A stretch of 64,000 nt of DNA, taken from contig JBAYHW010000003.1 of the NCBI GenBank assembly GCA_041665925.1, positions 7,737 through 71,736 on the forward strand, written 5' to 3'. A program made the position numbers and the translations under genes. The notes beneath the pieces are model-generated. The model was given only the letters and a program-made list of their open reading frames with translations, did no database searches and was not told the DNA's origin. Below, one piece after another: positions 1-41,849 of the stretch; position 1 is the first letter of the stretch; each line of letters begins with the position of its first letter. The DNA is from Minisyncoccota bacterium. Its GTDB lineage: Bacteria > Patescibacteriota > Minisyncoccia > Phycocordibacterales > UBA9973.

Positions 1-225
1 CACACCGAGGGTGTGCCCTAAAACGATTGCAAATTGGCGGAAAGACTCTCCAGGTGGCATCTGAGAATCCAGACACCCTCCAGAGCTAAGAGCCAGCATC
101 CCGACCCGTCACTCACGGTCGGCCATAGAGCCCTCGGGCTCCCCTGGGCAAATCGCTCCTTCTTCATGCATTCCATGCTAGCAATGCATGCTTCCCAAAG
201 AGCCCCTCCGAATATATTTCTATAG
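1..225. other. GC-rich non-coding stretch, possibly a structured RNA that is partial at the window edge
   Basis: About 60% GC in a roughly 35% GC genome, many short hairpins (for example gagcccgagggctc), and no convincing ORF. The 63-aa ORF 34..225 has no protein-like composition. Confidence 0.3.
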
Positions 226-228
226 ATT

Positions 229-477
229 TCAGTTCAATTTGTCAACAAGTTTTAACTTATCGAATCGAGATAGAGATTTAATCCTGGCTTCTTCGTGAGA
301 AGCTGTAGACCTGTTTTTAAATTTCTTAAAATACACCATTTTCACCGGCCTGCGTCCGTGAGTATACTTCGCTCCCAAATTTGAGCTATTGTGCTCCTCC
401 ACTCGTCGTTTCAAATCCGTGGTAATCCCAGTATAGAAAGTCCCATCGGCGCATTTTAAAATATAAAGATGATACAT
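229..477 (-). CDS. GIY-YIG nuclease domain protein (small UPF0213/YhbQ-like)
   Basis: 82 aa with the YILKCADGTFYTGIT...RRVEEHN GIY-YIG motif. Confidence 0.8.
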   Translation of the reverse strand: MYHLYILKCADGTFYTGITTDLKRRVEEHNSSNLGAKYTHGRRPVKMVYFKKFKNRSTASHEEARIKSLSRFDKLKLVDKLN

Positions 478-480
478 AAT

Positions 481-519
481 TTATACTATTCTCCTATTCG
501 TACGAATTAGACAATAGAG
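481..519 (-). promoter_or_regulatory. 38-bp 5-prime element with 12-bp palindrome ATTCGTACGAAT, copy 1, directly upstream of the GIY-YIG start codon
   Basis: Near-identical copy at 768-805, seen directly in the sequence. Confidence 0.6.
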
Positions 520-767
520 ATGACGGCGCGGGCTAGGGGTGGGAGTTTCGGCGCGAGCGAATAATAGCACGCTAGGCTACGCTGCTCTTTCTCGACAAGG
601 TCTGCCCCGGACAAGACAGCGAGATGCTTAGAAGTCGCCTTGAAAGAAAGTTTGAGGTGCTGGGCTATGTCGCCGACGTTCGCCTCTTTCTTCAGCTTCA
701 AAAATTTCACGACTTGCAATCGTCTTTTATTCGCGAGCGCCTTTAAAATTTTTTCATATTCTCTCAT
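507..767 (-). CDS. ArsR/SmtB-family HTH transcriptional regulator
   Basis: 86 aa with a wHTH signature VGDIAQHLKLSFKATSKHLAVL. Confidence 0.75.
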   Translation of the reverse strand: MREYEKILKALANKRRLQVVKFLKLKKEANVGDIAQHLKLSFKATSKHLAVLSGADLVEKEQRSLACYYSLAPKLPPLARAVISIV

Positions 768-805
768 ATTACTATTCTACCATTCGTACGAATTAGACAA
801 TAGAG
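768..805 (-). promoter_or_regulatory. 38-bp 5-prime element with palindrome ATTCGTACGAAT, copy 2, directly upstream of the ArsR start codon. Candidate ArsR operator.
   Basis: Direct repeat of 481-519. The copy contains TGGTAGAAT, an extended -10-like sequence, just before the ATG. Confidence 0.6.
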
Positions 806-836
806 GGGTTGGGGGAAATTGAAAAGCGAAGGCGGT

Positions 837-1121
837 TTAGATTTTGTCTTTTGGCGGGCCCCACATCCATTTAGGTTTCTCCCCTTTTTTGTATCCGAAA
901 TAAAATATAAGAGCAACCATGAGCAAGACACCGAGGAGGGCTGCGCCTGGCGAGTCATCCGCGTCCCCAATACGAATACCAAGCAAAGCAATAGCAATGC
1001 CCACTAGAACCACAGCCCATCCCTGCCAGCGTACAGGCACCCAGCCCCAGCCATACATCTTCCGCTTAAACCACAAACGCTCCGGATTGTCTTTTAGATA
1101 CGCAATATATTCTTTGGTCAT
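837..1121 (-). CDS. small membrane protein, Trp-rich (KRKMYGWGWVPVRWQGW...KGEKPKWMWGP). Paralog of 23471..23794.
   Basis: ORF with a central TM helix and a conserved motif shared with a second copy in the window. Confidence 0.6.
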   Translation of the reverse strand: MTKEYIAYLKDNPERLWFKRKMYGWGWVPVRWQGWAVVLVGIAIALLGIRIGDADDSPGAALLGVLLMVALIFYFGYKKGEKPKWMWGPPKDKI

Positions 1122-1307
1122 GTAAGTATTATACTCCTTTTAACTTCCTCTTGCTCTTCTGCCTCATCAAAAATCAAACCTGTCCCGTACTAAATAATTT
1201 TTGCATTCGATTAATTATTTCAGTACTGGGATCATTCTCCCCGCCTGCTCCCGAACTATCGTGAGAGCGGGCAGGCTTTACCACCCCCGCCATTTAAGCT
1301 AATTTAT

Positions 1308-1330
1308 AATCATCTCCTTACACGTGTAAG
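1308..1330 (-). terminator. perfect hairpin ctccttacacgtgtaaggag downstream of 1340..1693
   Basis: 20-bp palindrome followed by an AT-rich run. Confidence 0.5.
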
Positions 1331-1339
1331 GAGATTAAT

Positions 1340-1693
1340 TTATTTAAAATAAGAAAAAATTGCTGCCAATACGGAAGAAACCCCAAAAATCCAAAATCCC
1401 CATTTTTCTGCTATCCTCCAGGGCTCTTTCTCCATATATTCAATCCCCTCCGGGGTTAAAATTAAAATTGTTCCCCCAGAATCTCCCCAGCGAAAGTACA
1501 GAGATCTTCCATAGTTTACCATTTGATATATGTCGGGTCCCGTTAGTTTGCCACTTGATCTATTAGCAACCTCTCCATATTGCATATTTGTAGAGTTTGA
1601 TTTTTTATACTCCTCATACATTATTTTTGTAGCAATTTTTTCTTTTTTTGTCATATTTATTTTACCTCTCCGATTATCTTTTTTATACGGCAA
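1340..1693 (-). CDS. hypothetical C-terminal tail-anchored protein. The likely start is an internal Met near 1654.
   Basis: ORF with a C-terminal TM helix. The 37-nt overlap with the upstream gene disappears if the internal start is used. Confidence 0.45.
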   Translation of the reverse strand: MPYKKDNRRGKINMTKKEKIATKIMYEEYKKSNSTNMQYGEVANRSSGKLTGPDIYQMVNYGRSLYFRWGDSGGTILILTPEGIEYMEKEPWRIAEKWGFWIFGVSSVLAAIFSYFK

Positions 1694-2433
1694 TAAGTCA
1701 ATCCATCCATTAACATAATATCAAAAATGTGCCCGACCCTCATAGGATCTTTATGCCAAGCAAAATCCATATTACCGAAGTATTTACTTTTCTTTGATAA
1801 CACCTCAAACCTATATTTGTATTCTTTGTGGGATTTCACCCATTCTGAGCTTACAATTTTTATTCTCAGTCTCTGCCCTTCGCCTTCAACACTACCGCGG
1901 ATTGTCATCTTGTTTGTGATTTTTCTACGAACATTTACATTTGATAAAACTCCTTTCAAAACGCCTTTCCTCGATTGTTTAGCCAATTTATCAACTGCTT
2001 CGTTGTGTTGATCTCCAGAATGACCTTTTACTTTCACAAAATCAACATAGACGCGAAATGTTTGACCCATTCTTCTCATTAAACGAAGGAGCTCCTTCCA
2101 TTGTTCAGTATTAGCAACTGGTTCACCATTACTTTTTAGCCATTTCATTCTTGGCCAAGTAAACATTGCTGTCTTGTAGTTATTAACCACATATTGTGAA
2201 TCGGTATAGACAACTATGTTTTCTGCTCCCTTAATATCATTTATTTTTAACACTTCTTTCAGAGCTAAAATTGGAGCTTGCAATTCCATCATGTTATTTG
2301 TGGCGCCTTTATATCCATAGGGCGTAAAATCTTTTATTTCACCACCTGGAAATATAAAACGCATACCAACACCACCCTTTCGTGGATTGGGAGCAGAAGA
2401 TCCATCTGTATATATTAAAAGGGGGTCGCTCAT
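1657..2433 (-). CDS. RNase HI domain protein with an uncharacterized C-terminal extension of about 100 aa
   Basis: The N-terminal 155 aa carry all RNase HI catalytic positions (YTDGS, MELQA, YTDSQY, GHSGDQHNEAVDKLA). The C-terminal 100 aa have no recognizable fold. Confidence 0.8.
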   Translation of the reverse strand: MSDPLLIYTDGSSAPNPRKGGVGMRFIFPGGEIKDFTPYGYKGATNNMMELQAPILALKEVLKINDIKGAENIVVYTDSQYVVNNYKTAMFTWPRMKWLKSNGEPVANTEQWKELLRLMRRMGQTFRVYVDFVKVKGHSGDQHNEAVDKLAKQSRKGVLKGVLSNVNVRRKITNKMTIRGSVEGEGQRLRIKIVSSEWVKSHKEYKYRFEVLSKKSKYFGNMDFAWHKDPMRVGHIFDIMLMDGLTYCRIKKIIGEVK

Positions 2434-2488
2434 ATTTCCACCTATTTTAACAAGTGCGGTTCTTGTTGAGCCAAATTTTTTAAATATG

Positions 2489-3124
2489 CTACCATTTCTT
2501 TTTTAATTCTTTGGATAAAAAATCCACTAGGGGTCTAGCCCAGTCTTTGAAACTAATAACGTGAGTAAATATTAATGTGCCAATCGTTATAAAGGAAATT
2601 GTATTAAAACTATATTTTTCGGACATTAAAGCAAGTAAACCAAAAGAGATAGAATTGTAGAAACAAAATGCGAAAATTTCCCCTGCATAAACCACTCTCT
2701 CTTTTAAATATTTTGCCTGAGCTTCCTTCGCGGCATAATCAAAATATATTTTTGCATCACCCCGTTGAATTGCATCAACCGCTGCATTTATTACTTCATC
2801 CATCTTTTCTTTAAAAATATCACCTTGCCTTTTTATCTCTTTCGCTTCAAAGTCTACTATTTCTCTTGTGTAAGAAATAGTTCCAATTACAGTAAAGAGG
2901 GAGAAAGTTAAAGACAAAATAAGAAATTGAAGATCTAATTGATCCTTGAAGAAAAACCCAATTCCCACAATAGCAACTACGAGGGTTGAGATTGTTTTAA
3001 ATAAATCTAATTGAGTAAGCAGTAGCTGAAAATTAGAATTTAGTTCGTAATCTGAATATTTATCTTTTAAACGGAACGAGTCCTCTATGGCTTTTACAAT
3101 TATTTTTTTATGTTCTTCGTGCAT
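2489..3124 (-). CDS. hypothetical 4-TM membrane protein
   Basis: Four hydrophobic helices with a soluble Lys/Glu-rich loop of about 60 aa. Confidence 0.55.
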   Translation of the reverse strand: MHEEHKKIIVKAIEDSFRLKDKYSDYELNSNFQLLLTQLDLFKTISTLVVAIVGIGFFFKDQLDLQFLILSLTFSLFTVIGTISYTREIVDFEAKEIKRQGDIFKEKMDEVINAAVDAIQRGDAKIYFDYAAKEAQAKYLKERVVYAGEIFAFCFYNSISFGLLALMSEKYSFNTISFITIGTLIFTHVISFKDWARPLVDFLSKELKKKW

Positions 3125-3153
3125 ATATAACTTGCAATGTATAATAGTAAAAA

Positions 3154-5199
3154 CTACTGTACATCATTATTGTTTAAAACTTTTATTACAACTCCCTGCA
3201 TTTGAATTTCTTCGTTCGATTTAAATTTCAATGGTTGGTGCTTGGAATTATCTGAGCGAGGATAGAGAACGATGAGACCATTTTCCCTACGATACTCTTT
3301 AATAGTAGCATCATCCCCAATTAGTGCCACAACCTTTTTCCCTTCTTCTGGTCTATAGTTTTTAACGCACAAAACAAGATCACCGTCATTTATTCCTGCT
3401 TTATTCATAGAATCTCCGGAAACACGCAAAACAAAATATTTTGAACCAGAAGACATATAATCCTTTCGAACAGAAATCATTTCTTGAACTGTTGGATCAG
3501 CATACATCAACTCGCCACAACCCACCGATTCAAACACGGGAACTTTTACCATTTCAAAAGTATATGGAGAGGCAATCTCTTCCTTTATCCTCTCTGGGGA
3601 ACTTGTAGGTATAGTCTTGTTATTTATAATTTTTTTGAAATATTCTCGAAGATTGTCGTCAACAATATAAATGTAAGTACCTTTTATTCCCCGAGTCAAA
3701 AGTGTCCGGTATATATTTATGATATATCTCTCTAATTCTTTAGGGTCTGCTACACCAGCGTGACCATTGCGATCACAATATTTACTCTTATCTACTACAA
3801 TCTTATTTTCATCTTTATCATAGGTAAGCTCTGGTCCAACAATGACGCCAACATAATTCATGCCGTAACCCTGGACTGTATGTATACAACCTACTTCATT
3901 AACTGCATTAGGAGAGTTGACCCAATCTTTCGTTTTACTATTCCATCGAAACTTATGCCCCTTTATTTCAATATCAAAATCTTGCTCCGGTACGCCGTTA
4001 GCTGGATTCGTAACCCAGGGCCAAGCAAACCCTGCGACCATACGTGAAAGTCCTAATTTTTTATCTTTTTCCTTTATTGCTTTGTGCATTTCCGACACGT
4101 CATCAAAAATGCTTAGTTCATAATTTTTTAAATCTGGAAACTTTGCTTTTCTTTGATTGAGGGTATCATCGATAAATAGAATATAGTCTTCCCCTGCTTG
4201 AATCCGCATTTGCTTTGTGAGTTGATAAAAGCTGGCACCTTTTTGTCGCAGGTCTACGTCATCAATATCAGCAGGAAGTACACTCTGCCCTTGATCATAA
4301 AAAAACACTTGTCTTTTCGTATTCTTAAGAATCCAATCGAGTTGAGTTGCCTCTCTCGACAATCCCAGTTGTTTATTAATCTCATCGAATGCTTTGAATG
4401 CTGCCCCCAGATTTTTGCGCTTTTTTAGCCTATGTGCTTCATCCACAATAACCAAGTCATATGACTCGTTTGTAATATCATAAGGCCCAATGACCATATT
4501 TGATTTAAGCCCAGGCGTAGCTTTAAACACTTTCTGCAGGGTGCCTCGCAAGCTAGTCATGGGCGCAATCAATGCGATTTTGAGATGCTTCGTGCTCTCG
4601 TGGTCTTTTAAGTATTTTATTAAATATGTCGCCAAGATTGTTTTGCCTGTCCCAGCTACACCTTCTACTACATAAGTAGTGGCTTTCTCATTTTCAATAT
4701 CTTTTACTAATTTTTTAACAAAAATATATTGTTCCTCGGTTAACGCTTTATACGGCGAATACTTGAAAAGATCGCTATTTTCGATCTCATAAATTTCTTT
4801 TCGGATAAGTCCTTTCTTTATTAACTCTTTCCAGATTATTTCACATTTTGCTCGATATTCTGATCTTTGATAATAATTATGATTTCTTATTCCGTCATTT
4901 TTATTCTGTAACATAAGCGACCCCTCAGCAGCTAAATGTTCTATAAGAAAAGCTTCAATATCTAGCGCTGCTGATTTGTTATATGTTTCATCGGTAATTA
5001 TATGAGCTTTCTTTAGCCTTCTGCGTTCATCATTTTCATAGTGCTGTCTACTGCGATTGAAAAAGTTTGTTGTCTCACCCACATATGCCTCATTTGTCGT
5101 TTCGAGCAAATAAACCACGGGCCAATCACATCCGTAGTGATATTTGTGTACTTCTTCAAAACCTTGCGGATTAAATTCAAAAGTTTCTATTTGCGCCAT
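3154..5199 (-). CDS. fusion of a GIY-YIG-like N-terminus, a DUF2075/Schlafen-like SF1 P-loop NTPase and a C-terminal LexA-type S24 peptidase
   Basis: N-terminal YVGETTNFFNRSRQH. Walker A GVAGTGKT and Walker B/DEAH-like LVIVDEAHRL. The C-terminus VLRVSGDSMNKAGINDGDLV...VVALIGDDATIKEY aligns with the LexA catalytic domain, including the Ser in GDSM and the Lys dyad. Confidence 0.8.
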   Translation of the reverse strand: MAQIETFEFNPQGFEEVHKYHYGCDWPVVYLLETTNEAYVGETTNFFNRSRQHYENDERRRLKKAHIITDETYNKSAALDIEAFLIEHLAAEGSLMLQNKNDGIRNHNYYQRSEYRAKCEIIWKELIKKGLIRKEIYEIENSDLFKYSPYKALTEEQYIFVKKLVKDIENEKATTYVVEGVAGTGKTILATYLIKYLKDHESTKHLKIALIAPMTSLRGTLQKVFKATPGLKSNMVIGPYDITNESYDLVIVDEAHRLKKRKNLGAAFKAFDEINKQLGLSREATQLDWILKNTKRQVFFYDQGQSVLPADIDDVDLRQKGASFYQLTKQMRIQAGEDYILFIDDTLNQRKAKFPDLKNYELSIFDDVSEMHKAIKEKDKKLGLSRMVAGFAWPWVTNPANGVPEQDFDIEIKGHKFRWNSKTKDWVNSPNAVNEVGCIHTVQGYGMNYVGVIVGPELTYDKDENKIVVDKSKYCDRNGHAGVADPKELERYIINIYRTLLTRGIKGTYIYIVDDNLREYFKKIINNKTIPTSSPERIKEEIASPYTFEMVKVPVFESVGCGELMYADPTVQEMISVRKDYMSSGSKYFVLRVSGDSMNKAGINDGDLVLCVKNYRPEEGKKVVALIGDDATIKEYRRENGLIVLYPRSDNSKHQPLKFKSNEEIQMQGVVIKVLNNNDVQ

Positions 5200-5202
5200 A
5201 TA

Positions 5203-5550
5203 CTAAAGTTCTGTGTATTTGTTGTGTCGGCCTTTGGCTTTTTTTATGGGGTATTTTTTATTATTTTCCTTCATTTTTTTTCTCAAAGCTTTTTCTATGT
5301 CTATATTTAAATCATCACTCAACAAAAGAACCCAATAAAAAACATCTGCCAGTTCATCCCCGATTTCATTTTTATTGGTTTTGATATATTTTTCAATTTC
5401 TTCTTTCGATTTCCATTGAAAGTGCTCCAGTACTTCCCCTGCCTCAAGAGACAAAGAGATTGCCACATCTTTTGGGTTGTGGAATTGTTTCCAATCTCTA
5501 GCTTCCCTGAAATCATTTATTAATTTTGTAAGAGATTTAATGGGATCCAT
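5203..5550 (-). CDS. MazG-like nucleoside triphosphate pyrophosphohydrolase
   Basis: EAGEVLEHFQWK...ELADVFYWVLLL...KYP motifs. The start was moved to the internal Met, which has an AAGGA/GGAAG RBS. The ORF-track start at 5640 adds a low-complexity N-terminus. Confidence 0.75.
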   Translation of the reverse strand: MDPIKSLTKLINDFREARDWKQFHNPKDVAISLSLEAGEVLEHFQWKSKEEIEKYIKTNKNEIGDELADVFYWVLLLSDDLNIDIEKALRKKMKENNKKYPIKKAKGRHNKYTEL

Positions 5551-5779
5551 TTTATTTCTTCCAATCCTTAATTTGAATCCCGCCGGGGATCTTTTTGACG
5601 ACCACTTTTTGCTTCTCCTTCCAGTTGAGCTTTCGGACAAGATCCATGGGTAAAGTGACAGCGAGCGATGCTCCGCCGACCTTGGTTAACTTCCTTATAT
5701 TGCTACTAGCTGATTTAGTTATTCCCATAAATACTTATTCGTTTACGCATTCGATTACGTACATCATACTCCAGCTAGG

Positions 5780-5919
5780 GGGTAAATTCAATCCCGTTAG
5801 AAGTCGCGAGGGATCTTATGACCCTCTACTTCTAACGGGACTAGTCTGAAAAAGAAATCGCCCCGACCGAAGCCGGGGCGACGAGCGTTCTGGCCGTGAG
5901 TACTAACTCGGCCAGAACG
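5780..5919 (-). terminator. cluster of three GC-rich hairpins downstream of the small GC-rich ORF
   Basis: cccgttagaagt...acttctaacggg, cgccccgaccgaagccggggcg, and gttctggccg...cggccagaac, which overlaps the stop codon. Confidence 0.45.
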
Positions 5920-6117
5920 TGATGAGGAACGGGAGCGCGACGGCCAGGGCTGTGGCGCCCCATCCGACCTGAAGCACCCGCCGCCGCAAGAAGACGAAGG
6001 GCTGTTGAGGCTCCTTGTCCTCGGCGATACGCAGCCGAAGCAACCCAGCACCGGCGAACGCCACTAGCGCCAGCGCTACCAGCACGAGGATCAAAACGTC
6101 AATTGGATTCATCTTAT
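5903..6117 (-). CDS. small 2-TM hydrophobic protein encoded in a GC-rich islet (about 62% GC)
   Basis: MNPIDVLILVLVALALVAFAGAG... with a strong AAGGAGGAG RBS. The composition is foreign to the surrounding genome. Confidence 0.4.
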
Positions 6118-6268
6118 TTCTCCTCCTTACGAACTCGGGATTTACATTACCACGATTTAAAAAAATTTCAAGGGCTGAGTCTATTCCCCTTTTTGGATAG
6201 AAATTTATTTTAAACAAGAACAATCCTTGCTGGTCAATGATGCAAAAGACACTCGCAAGGTTTGTTTT

Positions 6269-6460
6269 TTATTTTATAATCCGCGCCCAGATTCTTTCGT
6301 GCAGATAATAGAGAAAAGTTAAGATAAGCGCCAGGATTAAAGTAATCACAGTTGATTCTCTGAGTTCACCGGTGTAGAGATACACAACAATCCCTGTCGC
6401 GATGGTCGCCAAAATTCTCCAAGTTATGGCCTTTAAAATAGATTGTGTTTTAGTTTCCAT
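6269..6460 (-). CDS. DUF2061-like small membrane protein
   Basis: 63 aa with two TM helices, ITWRILATIATG motif. Confidence 0.45.
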   Translation of the reverse strand: METKTQSILKAITWRILATIATGIVVYLYTGELRESTVITLILALILTFLYYLHERIWARIIK

Positions 6461-6468
6461 ATTTATTT

Positions 6469-7200
6469 TTACAACTTCTCTACTTTAAAAGTGACTTTGT
6501 AGTTTGTATACGGCACAGGTTTACTTGCGAGAGGAAATGGTGAACTTGAGACTAAGGAAACTTTCCAAGTATCGAAGCCTCGAGGAGCATCGTTGTCCGC
6601 CATGTTTAAGGTCTCCTGATCAGTATTAGATTTCAAAGTAACATTAACGACGATGTTACCCGCCTGAATACAAGTAGCATCAGCAGGACAGCGACTGTCG
6701 GACAATATTTTATTCAAAGTGATCCGTACTCCATTTATATATTTAGTCTCACCCACCCCGACGATACCGGTAGTAGCAACTTCAGGTGTAGTTTCTTCTA
6801 TCATATCTACCTCGAGAGTGCTGCCAGTGGTAAAGGCCCCCTTCACTTTCACCGTCTTATTTACTAACGTTCCGAGGACGTTGCTTATTCTAGAAAATTT
6901 CAAGGGCATAGAGTATGAAACTTCTTGACCAGAATTTTCTGGCGCAGCAACTATCAAGAAAAAGTCTGCGCCCTGCTGTGACAACTTACCTGTAAATGAT
7001 TCTTGGTTTTGACAGGCTTGAAACTCACACTTAGGACCACTTCTGCCCACCCCGGAACCGTCCGGGCAAATGAGCGCATCCATGGTGCAAGCATATGGTT
7101 CGTCATCAGTTATGTCTGCAGTTTGTTTATCTTTAAAAAAGAAAAACAAGCCTGCTAGAACTGCTAAAATCACTAAAATTAGTATGTAGAATTTTTTCAT
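6469..7200 (-). CDS. secreted or anchored Cys-rich hypothetical protein
   Basis: N-terminal TM/signal and multiple Cys pairs. Confidence 0.55.
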   Translation of the reverse strand: MKKFYILILVILAVLAGLFFFFKDKQTADITDDEPYACTMDALICPDGSGVGRSGPKCEFQACQNQESFTGKLSQQGADFFLIVAAPENSGQEVSYSMPLKFSRISNVLGTLVNKTVKVKGAFTTGSTLEVDMIEETTPEVATTGIVGVGETKYINGVRITLNKILSDSRCPADATCIQAGNIVVNVTLKSNTDQETLNMADNDAPRGFDTWKVSLVSSSPFPLASKPVPYTNYKVTFKVEKL

Positions 7201-12658: not shown

Positions 12659-12688
12659 TTTACTTGCTAGGTCTTGCCTAGCAAGTTT
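12659..12688. repeat. REP-like palindromic element, copy A: ttacttgctaggtcttgcctagcaagtttc
   Basis: Identical 30-mer at 13829-13858 and a partial inverted copy at 13384-13395. Confidence 0.7.
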
Positions 12689-13352
12689 CTATATCATTAT
12701 AAGATAACCATTCGAAAATTTCTCTTTTAAAAACTTCGGGTGATGAAAAATATCTTGGATAGTCCTTATAATTTATAATACCATTTTGCTTTCGCACCTT
12801 GCCTATGTAATCCGGATAACTCGAAAAATAATATTTTTGCAAAAAATCTATGGCTTTTGTTTTATTTTTTATACCATTTTCCTTCCAGTCCCCTTGAATC
12901 AATTTGACCGGGTTCAAATGTATATAGGAAAAAATGTATTTCAAATATCTATCATCTCCTAAATGCTCTGATTTAAATTTCCCCTCAAAAAGTCCGCCTG
13001 TTCTTTTATATTTATTATTAAAATACATTACATATGCTGTACTTACTTTCTGCATAAATTTACTGATACCATTTTCCTCTTTTTCAGTTACTAGGATATG
13101 AAAATGGTTAGGCATCAGTACAAAAGACCCGATACTTATCAAGGGCTTGCCTCTTTCAAAAAGATACGGGTCCTTTTCTTTCGTATTTTCCACTAAGAAA
13201 TTCCGAAAATTATTAGTCCCATTACAGGTATACAAAAGAGTGATAAAACGGTAATAATCTTCTTTTTCGAGAAAAATTTTTTGTTTACTATTCCCGCGAT
13301 TATACAAATGATAGTATTCTCCTACAGCAAATGATGTAGTGCGTACTGACAT
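12678..13352 (-). CDS. IS200-like Y1 (HUH) transposase, RAYT-like (REP-associated tyrosine transposase)
   Basis: YHLYNRG N-terminal motif, HUH motif MPNHFHILV, and catalytic Tyr in YIHLNPVK. At 224 aa it is longer than a classic IS200 TnpA, as RAYTs are. Confidence 0.8.
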   Translation of the reverse strand: MSVRTTSFAVGEYYHLYNRGNSKQKIFLEKEDYYRFITLLYTCNGTNNFRNFLVENTKEKDPYLFERGKPLISIGSFVLMPNHFHILVTEKEENGISKFMQKVSTAYVMYFNNKYKRTGGLFEGKFKSEHLGDDRYLKYIFSYIHLNPVKLIQGDWKENGIKNKTKAIDFLQKYYFSSYPDYIGKVRKQNGIINYKDYPRYFSSPEVFKREIFEWLSYNDIETC

Positions 13353-23470: not shown

Positions 23471-23794
23471 CTAAAATTTATCTTTGTCTCCAGATAATCT
23501 CGACAAGAGGGGCTGGATGGGGCCCCAAGACCACTTAGTCTTTTCTCCCTTCCATAGGCATACCCCAACAAAAATTAAAGTTAAAAAAATAAATCTAGGA
23601 ATAAAACTTGCAAGAGTAGCACTAAATGAATTGTGTGAATCATTGATAAACTTTAGGTCTCCCGCAAGAGAAAGTATATAAATAATCGTTACAGCCCAAC
23701 CTTCCCAGGAAATCGGCATCCAGCCCCAACCATACATCCTTCTCTTAAACCAAAGTTTTTTTACTTTTTTATTTCCTTGTATATTTTCTTCCAT
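23471..23794 (-). CDS. small Trp-rich membrane protein, paralog of 837..1121
   Basis: Shared motif LWFKRRMYGWGWMPISWEGW...KGEKTKWSWGP. Confidence 0.6.
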   Translation of the reverse strand: MEENIQGNKKVKKLWFKRRMYGWGWMPISWEGWAVTIIYILSLAGDLKFINDSHNSFSATLASFIPRFIFLTLIFVGVCLWKGEKTKWSWGPIQPLLSRLSGDKDKF

Positions 23795-36377: not shown

Positions 36378-36761
36378 ATGGAAAAACTTAAAAAAGTTCT
36401 ATCATTAAGTGAGGCATCAAAAATTTCAGGTTATCACCCTGATTATTTGAGTGCTCTCATCCGTAAAGGAGAGCTCAGGGGCGAAAAAACGGGAGGAACT
36501 TGGTTTACCACAGAAGATGATGTCAGGGATTATATATTCAAACAAAAAGTGAGGCACAACCGTCCAGCCTTTTTTGATTTCTTGTCGCAAAAGCGAACTC
36601 AAAATATTGTAATTTATTCTGGAATTATATTCTGTCTCATTTCCCTGCTCGGTTTTTATTTCTATGGAATAAATCATAAGAATTTTACTCCTGAAGCCAA
36701 GAAAACTTTATCTCCTGACACAGAAGCAATAAAAGAAATAAAAACAGAAATTAACCAATGA
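36378..36761 (+). CDS. small HTH (excisionase/MerR-like) protein with a C-terminal TM helix
   Basis: LSLSEASKISGYHPDYLSALIRKGEL HTH, then one TM. Confidence 0.45.
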   Translation: MEKLKKVLSLSEASKISGYHPDYLSALIRKGELRGEKTGGTWFTTEDDVRDYIFKQKVRHNRPAFFDFLSQKRTQNIVIYSGIIFCLISLLGFYFYGINHKNFTPEAKKTLSPDTEAIKEIKTEINQ

Positions 36762-39655
36762 GAAAAATATTTTTACAAAAAAAATATTCACTTGTAAAAA
36801 AAATCGCTCTCACTATTTTCTCCTTAACTTATATTTTCGTTGCGATATTTTTTCACAACTCAAATGCTTACGCAGTTTTTAATAAGCAAATAAATTATCA
36901 AGGAAAACTTACAAATTCGAGCAGTGTTGCGGTTCCTGACGGATCATACAATATGGAGCTTGCACTCTACACCGTGGATTCTGGTGGCACTGCGATTTGG
37001 ACAGAGACCAGGATCGAAGCGAATCGCGTCGCAGTAGCTAACGGATTATTTAGTATATTGCTTGGCGAAGTTTCTTCACTAGCTTCCATAGATTTTAATC
37101 AGACGCTTTATCTTGGCGTAAACATTGGCGGAACTACAAACACTCCGACTCCTACCTGGGACGGCGAAATGGCTCCGAGAAAAAAACTTGGATCTGTTCC
37201 TGCAGCTTTTGAGGCAGTGAATGCGCTTACTGCCACTGCCGGGTTTACCGTGTCTGGAGGAAACCTCGTCTCCCCTATTCTCGTCGGCGGTTCTGGTACA
37301 ACTCAAGACCTGACCCTTCAAACCACGACAGGTGTGGGTGCCTCCGGTGCTGATATGCATTTTCTCGTCGGCAACAACGGTGGCACGGAAGCCATGACGA
37401 TACTAAATGATGGGAATATGGGCATAGGAATATTAAGCCCAAGCGCTGTTCTCCACCTTAAGGCCGGCACAGCATCTGCCGGTACTGGACCACTTAAATT
37501 TACCGCGGGGGCTAATTTGACCTCTCCTGAATCGGGCACATTAGAATTTGATGGCAGTAATTATTTTGGTTCAGTTGAAAGTGTTGGAACAAACTACACT
37601 TCCCAGTACCCATCTGCACATTCTAGCACTTACGTCAAATCTACATCGAGCTATAGCGCTAACTTCGAACCCTGGTTTGCTACCGATCCAGCTAAATCAC
37701 TGACGGGCGACTGGACAAATACGCAATGGGTGTCAGGTAGTGGTTCCCCTGCTTCGCAAAGATTGCATATTGATCTCGGTTCAGCTACAGTTATCAAAAG
37801 AATATATTACGAAAATTCTCATACCTCCGGCGGGTTTACCACTACAGGAGCCAAAAATTTTACCTTGTGGGGCTCTAATGATTCATCGGCTTTTTCGGAC
37901 ACAACCTATGGTTCAGATACAAACTGGACACAACTCTCTACTTCCGCTTCCCAATTTGATCAACACGCCGCATCTAATACCGCTGACCCCAAATATATAA
38001 CTGTTACGAACTCTACCGCATATAGATACTATGCAATAAAAATTGCAGACAACTGGGGCTACGCCGACTATATGGGCATTCGGCGCATTGAATTACAAAC
38101 AGCTGACTCCGTTACTGCGGACAGGCTAGGGTTGGTTATGGATAATGGCACCAGGTTGACTTCGGGTAGAATGCCTTACATAACTACCGATGGCAGACTA
38201 AAAGATACAACAAACTTTGTTTTTGATGGTACCAACCTGGGCATTGGTGATTCTTCACCGGATTATATGCTTGATGTTGCTGGCACTGCAGGATTTGATG
38301 GATTACTAACGGCCACAGCTGGACTAAACATTAGCAACGGAGCGACTTCGGCTGGGGTGCTCACTCTTTTGGAAGATACAGACGATGGTAGCAACTTTGC
38401 ATCTTTCCAAGTTCCTGCACTAGCGGCCAATACTGTGTATGTGTTGCCTGCCAATGACGGTGATGCATCCCAAGTGCTTACCACTAACGGTTCTGGGACA
38501 TTAAGCTGGGCGGCTGCATCTGCGGGCACGCCTACAGCGATTACAGTCGCCAACGAAGCGGCGGACACGACTTCATTTATAAGTTTCTTTACCGCGGCGA
38601 CGGGTGATCTCGGGCCAAAAACAAATGCAGCGCTTACCTTTGATGCTTCGACGGCGAAGCTTAGCGCAACTCAACTGGGTTCCACTGCAACGACAGGCAC
38701 TGCTCCCCTCACCGTAGCTTCTACCACGGTCGTAACAAATTTAAATGCGGATTATTTGGACGGACTGGACGGTTCCGCTTTCACTTCGCTTATTAATGAT
38801 GTTATTGGTAAGACCTCTTCCCTGCTCGGCTTTGCCCAATTTGGTGGCGATGGTTCTGACGGCGCTGGCCCAGCTTCAGGAGCGTTAACCTCCGATCCGA
38901 AACAATACACCAGCTGGACAATCACTGGAGCTGTTACTGTAAGTACTTCAGCGCCAGCGGGGTTGTTTGTGGGCGTGCAAGGCACCCTTACGTTAGATAC
39001 GGGCGGAAGTATTTCAGCAAACGGCAAAGGGCATGACCCCGGGAGTCCCCTTAACACAACCACTGGTATTGGAGAAAATTGTTTAGGTAATGTTAGTCAA
39101 ACCATGGAAGGAGGGTGTATTACAGGGGCTGGTGGAGGTGGTGGTGCCGATTCAGCTAATGCTGACGGGGCAGCTGGTGGAGGTGCGGGAGGTACGGGAG
39201 GTACGGGAGCAACACACGCTGGTGTCTCTGGTGGTGCTGCGGGGACAACAAGTGTAGCCAAAAAAACAGCAGCTAGGTTGGTGAAAGAATATTTGTTTTA
39301 CAATCCTTGGGCCAGTGGTAGGGGTTTAGTTGCGGGAGCAGGAGGAGGGACGGGCCGTACCTATGGCACTGGTGGTATGGGGGGAGGAATAATATATATT
39401 GAAGCAGACACTGTAACCATAACTCCAACTACAGCTGTTGTTACAGCGAATGGAGAGAATGCTGCCAATGATTCAAGTGGTAACGGTGGCGGCGGCGGCG
39501 GTGGCGGTGGTCTTGTGTGGATACGCGCTCGAACTCTAAGTGGGGTCAACACTACCACAGTTACTGCGAACGGCGGTACAGGAGGCACGTCAACTACAGG
39601 GTCGGCTGGAGGTAATGGCGCTGCTGGCGCGGTGATTATCGAAGATATTGATTAA
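36758..39655 (+). CDS. giant secreted protein with fibre-like repeats, a discoidin (F5/8 type C) domain and a Gly-rich C-terminus
   Basis: Signal/TM at the N-terminus. Discoidin-like block WTNTQWVSGSGSPASQRLHIDLGS...YYAIKIADNWGYADYMGIRRIELQ. C-terminal poly-Gly tract encoded by (ggc/ggt)n at 39481-39510. Confidence 0.7.
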   Translation: MRKIFLQKKYSLVKKIALTIFSLTYIFVAIFFHNSNAYAVFNKQINYQGKLTNSSSVAVPDGSYNMELALYTVDSGGTAIWTETRIEANRVAVANGLFSILLGEVSSLASIDFNQTLYLGVNIGGTTNTPTPTWDGEMAPRKKLGSVPAAFEAVNALTATAGFTVSGGNLVSPILVGGSGTTQDLTLQTTTGVGASGADMHFLVGNNGGTEAMTILNDGNMGIGILSPSAVLHLKAGTASAGTGPLKFTAGANLTSPESGTLEFDGSNYFGSVESVGTNYTSQYPSAHSSTYVKSTSSYSANFEPWFATDPAKSLTGDWTNTQWVSGSGSPASQRLHIDLGSATVIKRIYYENSHTSGGFTTTGAKNFTLWGSNDSSAFSDTTYGSDTNWTQLSTSASQFDQHAASNTADPKYITVTNSTAYRYYAIKIADNWGYADYMGIRRIELQTADSVTADRLGLVMDNGTRLTSGRMPYITTDGRLKDTTNFVFDGTNLGIGDSSPDYMLDVAGTAGFDGLLTATAGLNISNGATSAGVLTLLEDTDDGSNFASFQVPALAANTVYVLPANDGDASQVLTTNGSGTLSWAAASAGTPTAITVANEAADTTSFISFFTAATGDLGPKTNAALTFDASTAKLSATQLGSTATTGTAPLTVASTTVVTNLNADYLDGLDGSAFTSLINDVIGKTSSLLGFAQFGGDGSDGAGPASGALTSDPKQYTSWTITGAVTVSTSAPAGLFVGVQGTLTLDTGGSISANGKGHDPGSPLNTTTGIGENCLGNVSQTMEGGCITGAGGGGGADSANADGAAGGGAGGTGGTGATHAGVSGGAAGTTSVAKKTAARLVKEYLFYNPWASGRGLVAGAGGGTGRTYGTGGMGGGIIYIEADTVTITPTTAVVTANGENAANDSSGNGGGGGGGGGLVWIRARTLSGVNTTTVTANGGTGGTSTTGSAGGNGAAGAVIIEDID

Positions 39656-39674
39656 TTAAATTATTAAATAAAGA

Positions 39675-40787
39675 ATGAAAAAAAATAAACTTACAATCTT
39701 GATAATTCTCGTCTTAATATTTGCAGTGAGTTGCGGGTTTGCTAGTGCAGAAGAAATTCTGCCTGTTCCTCCAACGGAACAAACTTCGACGACTCCTGCT
39801 GACCCGGCACCAGAAGACACAAGTACTCCGCCTGCGGAAACTCCTCCCGTGACACCGGATCCCCAAACTCCACCCGCTGGAACGCCAGACCCAGGCACCG
39901 AAACCGGAACTCCCGCCGAAGACCCTGTCGTGCCACCAGCCGAAGCTCCTGCAGACCCTGCGCCAGAGATCCCCGTGGAGCCCATCCTGCCACCAGAGGC
40001 GCCAGTCGTTGTTGAAGAAACAGGCGACACCAATCCGCCGAATCGCATCAATGATTTGTCGCTCGAACGAGCGGGGCCGAAATCCGCGGATATTTCTTGG
40101 ACTGTGCCAGACATTGATGTAAAAAGTTATGATGTTCGTATATCACTGAAAGATCTCACGGAATCCAATTGGAGTAAGGCAGTCCAAATCACCGGCGGAG
40201 AAAATTCCAAAGAAGAAGGCGACGTCGAGATGGCAAGCTTGAGTGACTTGCCTCAAAACACGACGCTTTATGTCGCCGTGCGGACTTATGACAAGTCCGG
40301 CAACCCCTCCCCTATTTCCAATGTTCTTGAAATTGAAACCGAAGGCAAAGTAGAAAAAAGCAGGATTGCCGAGCTACGAGCAGGCGGAGCGGATGATGAA
40401 AACTTAAGTCCAGAAAATAGCGGGGTTGTCCGGCTGGTCTTGCAAGAAGAGGGTACTAAGTCCCCTATCTCCGACGAGTTAATCTTTGTGAATTTCATAA
40501 ATAAAAGAACGGGTGTAAGCACCGGAGGCGCTGTCACCGACGGCATGCTCGCTATGGAAATTCCGGCAGGAGAATATACAGTCAAGCTCATACTGCCGCC
40601 GACACTAAACGTCGCGGACGAATTGCCGACATTCGATATGGAAGAAGGTGGAGATGTGGATCTCGGTATTGTCAGGTTGACGCCCTCAGGTATGGCTGAA
40701 AACACAGATGGCTCTCTTTCTTTTGTAATCAAACTTTTGTTTGAAATAATTAAACTCTTACAAGAAATATTAACTAAACTTGGATAA
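39675..40787 (+). CDS. secreted Pro/Thr/Glu-rich protein with an FN3-like domain
   Basis: Signal peptide, PETPP-rich linker, and ISWTVPDIDVKSYDVRI...LYVAVRTYDKSGNPSP FN3 block. Confidence 0.6.
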   Translation: MKKNKLTILIILVLIFAVSCGFASAEEILPVPPTEQTSTTPADPAPEDTSTPPAETPPVTPDPQTPPAGTPDPGTETGTPAEDPVVPPAEAPADPAPEIPVEPILPPEAPVVVEETGDTNPPNRINDLSLERAGPKSADISWTVPDIDVKSYDVRISLKDLTESNWSKAVQITGGENSKEEGDVEMASLSDLPQNTTLYVAVRTYDKSGNPSPISNVLEIETEGKVEKSRIAELRAGGADDENLSPENSGVVRLVLQEEGTKSPISDELIFVNFINKRTGVSTGGAVTDGMLAMEIPAGEYTVKLILPPTLNVADELPTFDMEEGGDVDLGIVRLTPSGMAENTDGSLSFVIKLLFEIIKLLQEILTKLG

Positions 40788-40790
40788 CAA

Positions 40791-41849
40791 ATGTTGGGAC
40801 GATTGTTAAAAAAAATATTTCGGACGGAAGAACGTTTCAATCGTTTTATTATATTTATTTTGGCACTTTTGGCTGTGTTCGCACTTATGTGGCTCGCGAG
40901 CCGAGTATTTAAAAATGTGCCTTTTATAAGCACGCCGGAAGAAAATTCTGACAAGTGGCTAGACGATACTTTCAATTGGCAAAATTTAGATAAGACTATA
41001 TACGCGGTTCCCGAAAATATCTATCCTCGCGGGTTCAATCTTTTGTTCGTCGCCGATGATTTTCTGTCCTTCGATGAGTTCAAGGTTTCTGTGAAAAAAA
41101 TTGTTGCGGAGATGAAGAAAGTTGAACCCTGGAAAAGTCATTCCGAAATCAATATTTTCATGATTTATCAAAATGATCCGATTTTGTGCGAAGTAAAAGA
41201 AGAAAAAATGTATGCACCGATGCTAAAGTGTGGCAAAGATTTGATTAAACTAGTGCAGACATTACCCTTAATCAAGGTAAAAGTAATCGTCGTTTCGAGA
41301 GAACAATTTGTTTCTTGGTCTAACACCTCGAGACTAGAGAATACTTTTGTATTTTATAGTCTGCCCGCAAATAAAGAAGAAGACGCTTTTAACTACAAAA
41401 TATTTTTACACGAGCTAGCTATGGGCTTCGGATTGCGTGAAGAAATGCGAAGCATTATGGCGGAGTCTGGGTCAGCTCCAGCACGCCCTGAAGGGCCAAA
41501 CTGCGCGCCTACGGTAGATATTGCCAAAGATTGGTGGGGTGATTTTGTGCGCCGGGCTGACAGTACTCTCGTCTTTAGCCGGGCAAAAAATGATGTTGGA
41601 TTTTATTTTGGTTGCGCCGGTAACCAAGATTACATCCGTCCAACTCAAAAATCCCTGATGAATATCCAAGATTTTCCAGATGCAGAGACCTATGGACCGG
41701 TTTCAGAAGATTATTTGAAAAAAGTTTTACAATATTGCTTCTCAGGCAAAATATATGACAAAAAAACTGATTCAATATTCTTTGAACAATATAAAGAGTT
41801 CAAGGCTTGTTTAGGAGAAGAACAAACCTCTCTTTCTGACTCTATTTAA
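40791..41849 (+). CDS. membrane-anchored hypothetical protein
   Basis: N-terminal TM. No confident domain. LHELAMGFG is not a canonical HExxH. Confidence 0.5.
   Translation: MLGRLLKKIFRTEERFNRFIIFILALLAVFALMWLASRVFKNVPFISTPEENSDKWLDDTFNWQNLDKTIYAVPENIYPRGFNLLFVADDFLSFDEFKVSVKKIVAEMKKVEPWKSHSEINIFMIYQNDPILCEVKEEKMYAPMLKCGKDLIKLVQTLPLIKVKVIVVSREQFVSWSNTSRLENTFVFYSLPANKEEDAFNYKIFLHELAMGFGLREEMRSIMAESGSAPARPEGPNCAPTVDIAKDWWGDFVRRADSTLVFSRAKNDVGFYFGCAGNQDYIRPTQKSLMNIQDFPDAETYGPVSEDYLKKVLQYCFSGKIYDKKTDSIFFEQYKEFKACLGEEQTSLSDSI

Follow-up and report, generated by a model that had tools for sequence, protein, structure and literature searches.

The stretch of DNA analysed here, which we call the window, is 64 kb of a 93-kb contig (ENA ERZ27249449 k141_143552) that carries the NCBI label Candidatus Paceibacterota, within the candidate phyla radiation (CPR). 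Within positions 229-5728 there are nine open reading frames (ORFs) on the minus strand. In the order of reading these encode an AbrB/MazE-like protein, a MazG-like pyrophosphatase, a large fusion in which a GIY-YIG nuclease, a superfamily 1 (SF1) helicase of the DUF2075/Schlafen group 3 family and a LexA/UmuD-like S24 peptidase follow one another, a membrane protein, an RNase H with an extra C-terminal domain, two small proteins without family matches, an ArsR/SmtB-family regulator and a small stand-alone GIY-YIG protein. We find that the functional unit in this series is a two-gene operon, a tightly conserved pair formed by the MazG gene and the gene of the nuclease-helicase fusion. The original prediction had taken seven consecutive co-oriented genes as one block and as a candidate multi-gene immunity island. 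The genes that it named are real and lie where it placed them, and domain matches bear out the small GIY-YIG protein, the ArsR regulator, the RNase H with about 100 additional C-terminal residues and the DUF2075-S24 fusion. The ORFs number nine, among them the 94-aa two-TM protein, the 104/117-aa protein and the AbrB/MazE-like protein, which the original prediction does not list. Their common orientation is not distinctive, since it runs unbroken from before the start of the window to ~14.8 kb, through 30 or more genes.

Along the minus strand the order is a terminator-like hairpin, a promoter-like site, the abrB-like gene, 1 nt, the mazG gene, 3 nt and the helicase gene. The hairpin ends the upstream gene and marks the upstream boundary of the unit, and the promoter-like site overlaps an imperfect palindrome. 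The MazG-type gene had been given a start at 5640. Its family assignment to PF12643 holds, and the start is most likely the ATG at 5550, giving 115 aa, and not the TTG at 5640, because this is the ENA gene call, 72 homologues are ~115 aa in length and the AbrB-like ORF fills the region 5552-5728.

Homologues of the 681-aa fusion form more than 7,700 clusters. The best 120 are full-length at about 51-72% identity, and those with names come from Kaiserbacteria, Nomurabacteria, Spechtbacterales and other Patescibacteria. We collected 83 loci, made up of 80 metagenomic loci found in a search with an alignment of 31 homologues plus three close loci, and scored the neighbours by tblastn with all nine window proteins. 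MazG is encoded directly upstream of the helicase in 77 of the 83 (77 of the 79 that are informative), with gaps mostly of 5-9 nt. Four of the six loci lacking MazG have no upstream DNA present; the true absences are L033, with RpoD upstream, and L075, with a Clp protease-family gene. The other window proteins behave quite differently. The RNase H homologue was found once, weakly, ArsR once and the small GIY-YIG protein six times at scattered positions, and the four-transmembrane (4-TM), 117-aa and 94-aa proteins were never found in the 83 loci. By clustering, a wider group of ArsR-like ORFs covers four other loci. The AbrB-like gene accompanies the pair in 3 of the 83 loci (the window, L014 and L048, in the last two upstream of MazG); its product is a possible operon regulator, but the gene does not travel with the module. 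When 1,021 ORFs were clustered de novo the picture was the same, with the helicase in 81 loci, MazG in 72 and the next cluster, TspO-like, in 10. The predicted block therefore does not recur, and only MazG stays with the helicase. A lack of co-localization is the outcome that the original prediction had itself named as refuting.

The pairing extends beyond Patescibacteria. On megaplasmids of the Bacillus cereus group a nucleotide pyrophosphohydrolase (50% identical) precedes a DUF2075 protein (34% identical) that has no S24 domain, the two being adjacent in all 11 of 11 cross-checked records. On the Bacillus plasmid the neighbours are IS200/TnpB, zeta toxin and HNH genes, and a TnpA/TnpB pair lies near this copy of the module (L084). 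The pair is also present in a "Bacteriophage sp." contig of human-faecal origin and in five IMG/VR contigs, the helicase being carried by 5 of the 2.9 million contigs in that collection. The gene order is that of the window in L145-L147 and MT836409. In a Halomonas plasmid and in the IMG/VR contigs L148 and L149 the order is reversed with adjacency kept, and this is good evidence for functional coupling of the pair. A match to an Enterococcus raffinosus plasmid with 95% coverage was examined as a further instance and rejected; it is a GIY-YIG-DUF2075 protein with neither S24 nor MazG, and an HNH protein lies upstream.

The fusion protein comprises three domains. In an AlphaFold model, with a predicted local distance difference test (pLDDT) score of 83, the nuclease, the helicase, a disordered linker (residues 529-547) and the S24 domain are distinguished, and the linker and the cleavage loop have low pLDDT. 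Across 31 sequences the GIY-YIG residues Y30, Y39, G41, R49, H53, E82 and N99 are invariant, as are the helicase motifs G183-T-G-K186 (Walker A) and D253-E254-x-H256. The helicase core is SF1B-like, and its fold matches include SLFN11 (Foldseek E 3.5e-10), RecD2, Upf1 and Dna2; the tail matches LexA. The best PDB matches of the S24 region (residues 547-678) are LexA and UmuD, and its best NCBIfam match is LexA (TIGR00498), where it scores 79.9 and lies below the cut-off of 110.95. Alignment to E. coli LexA, for which the PDB chain is the S119A mutant, places C561-G562 on A84-G85, S597 on S119 and K634 on K156. All four of these residues of the fusion are invariant in the 31 sequences, and Cys-Gly is the cleavage site of UmuD. 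The S24 tail thus keeps the autoproteolysis set of LexA and UmuD, and self-cleavage is predicted on this basis.

About 25 of 83 homologues are without S24, which is found in ~70% of members, and members that lack it, for example in Bacillus, suggest that S24 is an added layer of control and not part of the catalytic core. In L096 the GIY-YIG domain is replaced by an unannotated domain of ~250 residues, with DUF2075 and S24 kept. There are two S24 subtypes (VGCGELM... and APCGNP...), and these do not follow the helicase tree. Residues 1-527 of the window protein are 76-80% identical to a group whose S24 domain is only 43-48% identical, and its S24 domain is 82-87% identical to that of proteins whose N-terminal part is only 51-56% identical. 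As judged by these sequence comparisons, S24 and N-terminal domains have been shuffled between helicase lineages.

The partner protein scores 73.7 bits with PF12643 against a gathering cut-off of 27. Its closest solved structures are PDB 4qgp, a pyrophosphatase of A. fulgidus (E 5e-21), and DCTPP1/RS21-C6 (E 2e-17), and the metal-binding residues E36, E39, E42, E66 and D69 are at least 95% conserved over 64 loci. This is what would be expected of an all-alpha NTP pyrophosphohydrolase of the DCTPP1/RS21-C6 type. The closest plasmid homologue, 58% identical, lies in L101 (Paenibacillus sp. 37 plasmid pART37, 5001-9239), where it precedes a 1,204-aa fusion of Topoisomerase III and FtsK/SpoIIIE and not a DUF2075 helicase. 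The MazG subfamily may therefore partner with different DNA motors. The coordinates of these and all other features are collected in Table 1.

Table 1. Genes, protein domains and non-coding elements at the locus; positions are those of the window except where another locus is given.
Feature	Position	Strand	Basis or remark
Small stand-alone GIY-YIG protein, 82 aa	229-477	-	PF01541, E 3.8e-16
Second copy of 36-nt element, between ArsR and small GIY-YIG	484-519	.	94% identical to first copy
ArsR/SmtB-family regulator, 86 aa	507-767	-	HTH_5, E 2.3e-10; NCBIfam NF033788, 71.6 bits, cut-off 55
36-nt palindromic element, directly upstream of ArsR	770-805	.	core ATTCGTACGAAT; putative ArsR operator
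Two-TM protein, 94 aa	837-1121	-	no family match
Structured intergenic region, 221 nt	1125-1345	-	three hairpins, perfect palindrome 1305-1342; z -4.4 vs shuffles
104-aa protein (117 aa from upstream TTG)	1340-1654 (1340-1693 with TTG start)	-	no family match
RNase H with ~100 extra C-terminal residues, 258 aa	1657-2433	-	PF00075, residues 5-154
Membrane protein, 211 aa	2489-3124	-	3-4 hydrophobic segments
GIY-YIG/helicase/S24 fusion, 681 aa	3154-5199	-	PF01541 2.6e-6; PF09848 1.3e-70; PF00717 5.2e-24
Peptidase S24 domain (LexA/UmuD-like), residues 550-681 and stop	3154-3552	-	PF00717, residues 554-672, 84.6 bits
Lys634 codon	3298-3300	-	aligned to LexA K156
Catalytic Ser597 codon	3409-3411	-	aligned to LexA S119
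Predicted self-cleavage codons, Cys561-Gly562	3514-3519	-	aligned to LexA Ala84-Gly85
DUF2075/Schlafen group 3 SF1 helicase core, residues ~150-527	3619-4752	-	PF09848, residues 175-514, 238.9 bits
GIY-YIG nuclease domain, residues 1 to ~130	4810-5199	-	PF01541 on residues 29-91
MazG-like pyrophosphatase, 115 aa	5203-5550	-	PF12643, 73.7 bits, E 1.4e-20
AbrB/MazE-like (SpoVT-AbrB) protein, 58 aa	5552-5728	-	PF04014, E 4e-8
Promoter-like site ahead of AbrB-like ORF	5763-5791	-	TTGAAT-17-TATGAT; consensus match only
Terminator-like hairpin	5857-5882	-	11-bp stem, 8 GC pairs, T-run; ends upstream gene
63-70-aa ORF at the RNase H start in three other genomes	L087 4817-5008; L089 4793-4996; L093 5796-6008

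While the two genes keep together, their flanking genes change in nearly every locus, and synteny is lacking. The 111 ORFs directly beside the pair were set against an equal number of control ORFs from the same loci that lie 5 kb or more away, using the top-25 lists. Among the Pfam matches listed, the flanks contain Mrr_cat (three), Fic (three), HATPase_c_3 (four), NA-iREase1 (three) and HpaII endonuclease, together with zeta toxin, NYN (two), EVE and two further DUF2075 proteins. The listed PADLOC matches of the flanks include REase_II, mREase_IV, ZorD-like Mrr, PDC-S02, PDC-S04 and SoFic, and PDC-S41 twice, with E 5e-289. The Pfam matches listed for the controls are mostly to housekeeping families (tRNA synthetases, gyrase, RNA polymerase, pilus, sugar transferases), and their listed PADLOC matches are mostly generic, with single matches to AbiEi, DRT and PDC-S05/S23.

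A second DUF2075-family protein lies beside the pair in L012 (5603-7573), L014 (4228-6246) and L080 (520-2499), and also in L047, L062, L063, L068 and L081; the two PDC-S41 matches are most likely among the 657-673-aa DUF2075 proteins of L012, L014 and L080. In the window's own contig the neighbours of the module are SecG, NUDIX, LemA, PG_binding and the like. An IS200/IS605-type Y1 transposase gene is located at 12678-13352 on the minus strand, ~7 kb upstream of the module. Near the module, just outside the start of the window (L001 15252-15605), there is a DUF1905 gene, homologues of which are directly beside the pair in L009, L027 and L031.

A PADLOC analysis of the nine window proteins returned no known system and no full-length match. 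The partial matches were of the helicase only, within its N-lobe, to Nhi and AbiO (E 4.6e-13 and 2.1e-12, respectively), and the program gave nothing for MazG, the RNase H, the 4-TM protein or the small GIY-YIG protein. In the library searched, no paper was found on DUF2075 with MazG, on MazG with Schlafen, or on an S24-helicase fusion. The sole trace of the module found there is in the supplement of Millman et al. 2022, where Table S2 (bioRxiv 10.1101/2022.05.11.491447) lists a cloned candidate named "Pyrophosphatase" that consists of a pyrophosphatase and a DUF2075 protein; this candidate is absent from the main text of that paper. The pair has thus already been picked out from defence-island statistics, and the CPR form with GIY-YIG and S24 is new.

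We tentatively favour the view, at somewhat short of an even chance, that the pair defends against phages or mobile DNA and belongs with the nuclease-helicases of the Nhi-like kind. The conserved pairing, the intact catalytic residues, the variable surroundings, often rich in restriction or toxin genes, the shuffling of domains and the Millman candidate all point in this direction. The link to defence that was drawn originally is thus supported in part, for the MazG-helicase pair and not for the seven-gene unit. In the mechanism that we propose, the S24 domain would hold the nuclease-helicase as an inactive or tethered dimer. Replication of foreign DNA, or DNA damage, would form RecA filaments on single-stranded DNA (ssDNA), and these filaments (or another cue) would stimulate self-cleavage at Cys561-Gly562. 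Cleavage would release a 561-residue nuclease-helicase able to unwind and cut invading or replicating DNA, and MazG would lower or clean the supply of (possibly modified) dNTPs needed by the invader.

A number of observations weigh against a role in defence. In Table S2 of Millman et al. 2022, where verified systems, Nhi-like included, are marked "v", the construct SG192 (from Bacillus firmus LK28; a 98-aa pyrophosphatase and a 643-aa DUF2075 protein), the one tested, is marked "x" as not verified, and SG193 (B. thuringiensis Lr3/2) is marked "Cloning failed". The enrichment of restriction, Fic and toxin families in the flanks is real in kind, modest in number and qualitative. Total counts of PADLOC families are similar, 131 in the flanks vs 124 in the controls; these totals are uninformative because generic UvrD, AAA and methylase models match housekeeping genes. 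By PADLOC and the contig annotation no recognised defence gene adjoins the module in the window. At 50-72% identity across CPR classes, and with its thousands of clusters, the fusion is unusually conserved for a defence gene, and this would fit a housekeeping or repair gene too. The co-phylogeny of MazG and helicase is weak (Mantel r 0.24). Lastly, the 64-kb window has no RecA or LexA to which the proposed trigger could be assigned. The missing recA and lexA genes nevertheless say little, because the window is only 64 kb of the genome. A second RNase H or MazG gene was likewise not found in these 64 of the contig's 93 kb, which neither proves nor disproves that the present genes are the only copies genome-wide.

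Several of these points would be explained if the pair were not an immune system and served as an SOS-like module of DNA-damage repair, the main rival reading, which we consider somewhat unlikely. MazG would then remove dNTPs that are damaged or non-canonical, stalled forks or lesions would be the substrates of the GIY-YIG helicase, as they are for UvrC-type and Dna2-type enzymes, and S24 would tie the helicase's activity or turnover to RecA filaments that form where the cell's own DNA is damaged. Such a role agrees with the full autoproteolysis set in S24, with a MazG-like protein closest to the house-cleaning DCTPP1, and with the structural neighbours Dna2 and RecD2, which are repair or replication helicases. 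It is consistent also with the very high conservation of the pair and its great frequency in reduced CPR genomes, with the HhH-GPD glycosylase and NUDIX genes on the same contig, and with the lack of phage defence by the Bacillus construct SG192. It sits less well with the variable genomic context and lack of synteny, and with the frequency of restriction, toxin and Fic genes as immediate neighbours, in which these differ from the distant ORFs. The Bacillus pair lies on megaplasmids next to insertion sequences and toxin genes, and the shuffling of domains and the loss of S24 in ~30% of members are atypical of core repair genes.

A third possibility is a selfish or addiction cassette of a mobile element, in which self-cleavage would activate the nuclease-helicase as a toxin and the AbrB/MazE-like protein would serve as a regulator of the antitoxin type. 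Such a cassette would be kept by post-segregational killing or for maintenance of the element, and not for host immunity. We judge this improbable. The AbrB/MazE-fold ORF does abut MazG and has a weak "addiction module antidote" match, but such a gene accompanies the pair in just the three loci given above. The location of the pair on plasmids and in a few viral contigs would suit such a cassette, although the helicase is very rare among the IMG/VR contigs. IS200-family transposase genes near the module, in both the window contig and the Bacillus plasmid, and the one failed cloning attempt (SG193) would agree with it; no integrase or recombinase adjoins the module in the window.

It is highly improbable that all seven (nine) co-oriented genes make up a single immunity island in which ArsR is the controller and the 4-TM protein the effector, and that reading is largely refuted because the genes do not co-localize: apart from MazG, none occurs with the helicase beyond chance-level counts in the 83 loci. 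What favours it, besides the L096 homologue of the membrane protein and the RNase H contexts described below, is local. The genes from the AbrB-like ORF to the 104-aa ORF are tightly spaced and are bounded by the hairpins at 5857-5882 and 1305-1342. In a GC profile of positions 1200-5700 this block has a GC content of 0.32-0.39 compared with 0.44-0.49 in the immediate flanks, but similar values occur elsewhere in the window, and the shared orientation is that of the whole 30-gene run. The sequence GCATTCGATTA has only two exact copies in 64 kb, at 1203-1213 and 5747-5757, bracketing the same block; the first lies inside the structured region 1125-1345 and the second is assigned to the promoter-like site. 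These copies and the dip in GC could be insertion borders, shared operator half-sites or chance. As proof of insertion we did not accept them; they are suggestive, with GC values of this order present elsewhere and a short repeat.

The membrane protein, which is encoded 29 nt downstream of the helicase gene, had been described as having four TM segments. It is indeed a membrane protein, with three clear hydrophobic segments and a fourth that is weaker on the Kyte-Doolittle scale. Its family is rare, with nine clusters. A homologue recurs downstream of a MazG and DUF2075-S24 pair in one genome, L096, and could be taken to favour an island. That genome is related, however, and shares other neighbours with the window, so the linkage there may be due to shared ancestry. 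In one other, partly informative context the protein is encoded beside housekeeping genes. We conclude that it is a lineage-specific neighbour and not part of the module.

The RNase H protein provides a separate lead. Its RNase HI domain (residues 5-156) has the RNase H fold with the DEDD residues intact, and it is followed by an OB-like beta domain at ~160-258; we refer to the protein as RNase HI-OB. It scores 108.2 against the cut-off of 160 for NF001236, the rnhA equivalog, and 149 bits with the phage family phrog_531. Only ~137 representative clusters have the C-terminal domain. A viral origin was considered and rejected, as one of 43 IMG/VR matches covers that domain. In five of seven distinct contexts the homologue is the last co-oriented gene after a restriction-modification (RM) or other defence cassette. 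The preceding cassette is Type III RM in L086, L087 and L093 and type I/IIG-like RM in L089 and L090, and in one and the same genomic background it is either Type ISP RM with a helicase (L094) or GmrSD (L095). In three genomes, though not in the window, the RNase HI-OB gene is overlapped at its start by a conserved ORF of 63-70 aa (62-68% identical; MVHINPETV...YGVEYSD.EAWEA.HNL). The sites are chromosomally unrelated between homologue loci. In L087 the gene adjoins prfB-ftsEX-pyrG, which are 50 kb away in the window, and it is therefore not a fixed chromosomal anchor. As no far-side synteny was found between the window and these loci, we do not claim a swap at a fixed hotspot. RNase HI-OB is best regarded as a gene in its own right, still unexplained, that accompanies defence cassettes and is not conserved with the module. 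Its family may represent a gene newly linked to defence, or may mark defence hotspots.

The ArsR regulator and the small GIY-YIG protein lie beyond a structured gap of 218 nt and have an operator-like element of their own, repeated, which further separates them from the genes upstream. A 36-nt palindromic element with the core ATTCGTACGAAT stands ahead of both genes, and this core has only two copies in 64 kb where 0.24 would be expected. The arrangement supports control of the small GIY-YIG gene by ArsR through this element, as originally proposed. The small GIY-YIG protein had no PADLOC, NCBIfam or PHROG match. ArsR and GIY-YIG are a separate unit that is not conserved with the module.

The structured region 1125-1345 is a probable transcription boundary. 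A search of positions 1-6500 against Rfam at a permissive threshold gave nothing meaningful, and this region was without a match. On its two sides lie the remaining small genes. The 104-aa protein, which has a C-terminal hydrophobic tail, starts a few nt at most from the stop codon of the RNase H gene; it has neither a family match nor, among the related loci, a homologue. A paralogue of the 94-aa two-TM protein, 45% identical, is encoded at 23519-23761 on the minus strand. Elsewhere in the window, 36758-41849 on the plus strand is GC-rich (0.515 at 38-40 kb against ~0.38 for the window) and encodes a 965-aa protein with a weak DUF5000 match only, followed by two proteins without a family match.

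CPR bacteria, or Patescibacteria, have very small genomes, very few described anti-phage systems and a handful of known phages (PMC12366544). A two-gene module present in thousands of their contigs would be a major part of their biology, whether it acts in immunity or in the response to damage. The S24 fusion would provide a concrete switch, at a defined Cys-Gly bond, on a relative of Nhi, of Nhi-like and of the human Schlafens, and the pairing with MazG suggests that control of the nucleotide pool acts together with a DNA-degrading motor. The same linkage may explain why the pyrophosphatase and DUF2075 candidate showed no phenotype in one heterologous test, for instance if the phages were the wrong ones or the trigger was missing. 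The analysis sets apart the genes that form units (MazG with the helicase; ArsR with the small GIY-YIG) from those that are neighbours only.

Carried to its full extent, the defence interpretation would make a Schlafen-type nuclease-helicase with a LexA-like sensor and a DCTPP1-like MazG one of the most widespread immune modules of Patescibacteria. It would sense RecA-ssDNA filaments or an equivalent, cut itself at Cys-Gly to free a DNA-degrading motor while MazG starves the invader of nucleotides or cleans them, and stand as a prokaryotic parallel to SLFN11, with RNase HI-OB genes as accessory or stand-alone defence genes placed after RM cassettes. Taken as a whole we regard this extended proposal as unlikely.

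The known systems can be compared with the module one by one. As in the "Pyrophosphatase" candidate, a small MazG-like gene stands next to a DUF2075 gene, in the window 3 nt apart. Between the window and SG192 the identity is 48% for the pyrophosphatases (E 3e-31) and 24% for the helicase cores (E 1e-11). The DUF2075 partner in SG192 differs in its N-terminal domain, which looks PD-(D/E)XK-like by eye, and it lacks an S24 tail.

Nhi (S. epidermidis SERP2475; Bari et al.) and Nhi-like (B. cereus; Millman et al. 2022) are validated anti-phage defences that consist of a single protein. The fusion resembles them in having an N-terminal nuclease joined to a DUF2075 SF1 helicase with intact ATPase motifs. 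Its nuclease is GIY-YIG, whereas that of Nhi is PD-(D/E)XK. The PADLOC Nhi model PDLC02372 covers only residues 143-381 of the fusion (E 4.6e-13), with no full-length match. A conserved MazG partner and, in the S24-bearing majority, the peptidase tail are features of the window family, neither being reported for Nhi.

With LexA and UmuD the fusion shares the Ser-Lys dyad and an Ala/Cys-Gly site in a loop N-terminal to the catalytic core. Unlike LexA it has no helix-turn-helix DNA-binding domain, and its S24 domain lies C-terminal to a nuclease-helicase of 530 residues. The window MazG is like DCTPP1/RS21-C6 in belonging to the PF12643 family and keeping the metal-binding Glu and Asp residues, and differs from DCTPP1-type enzymes in being locked into an operon with a nuclease-helicase.

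Among known structures human SLFN11 matches the helicase core best, and the two share the Pfam family PF09848. The identity is only 12%, the nuclease fold of SLFN11 is different, and SLFN11 has neither S24 nor a MazG partner. SLFN11 is recruited to RPA-coated ssDNA at stressed forks. By analogy, a tail that sensed RecA filaments would be its functional parallel in the bacterial protein.

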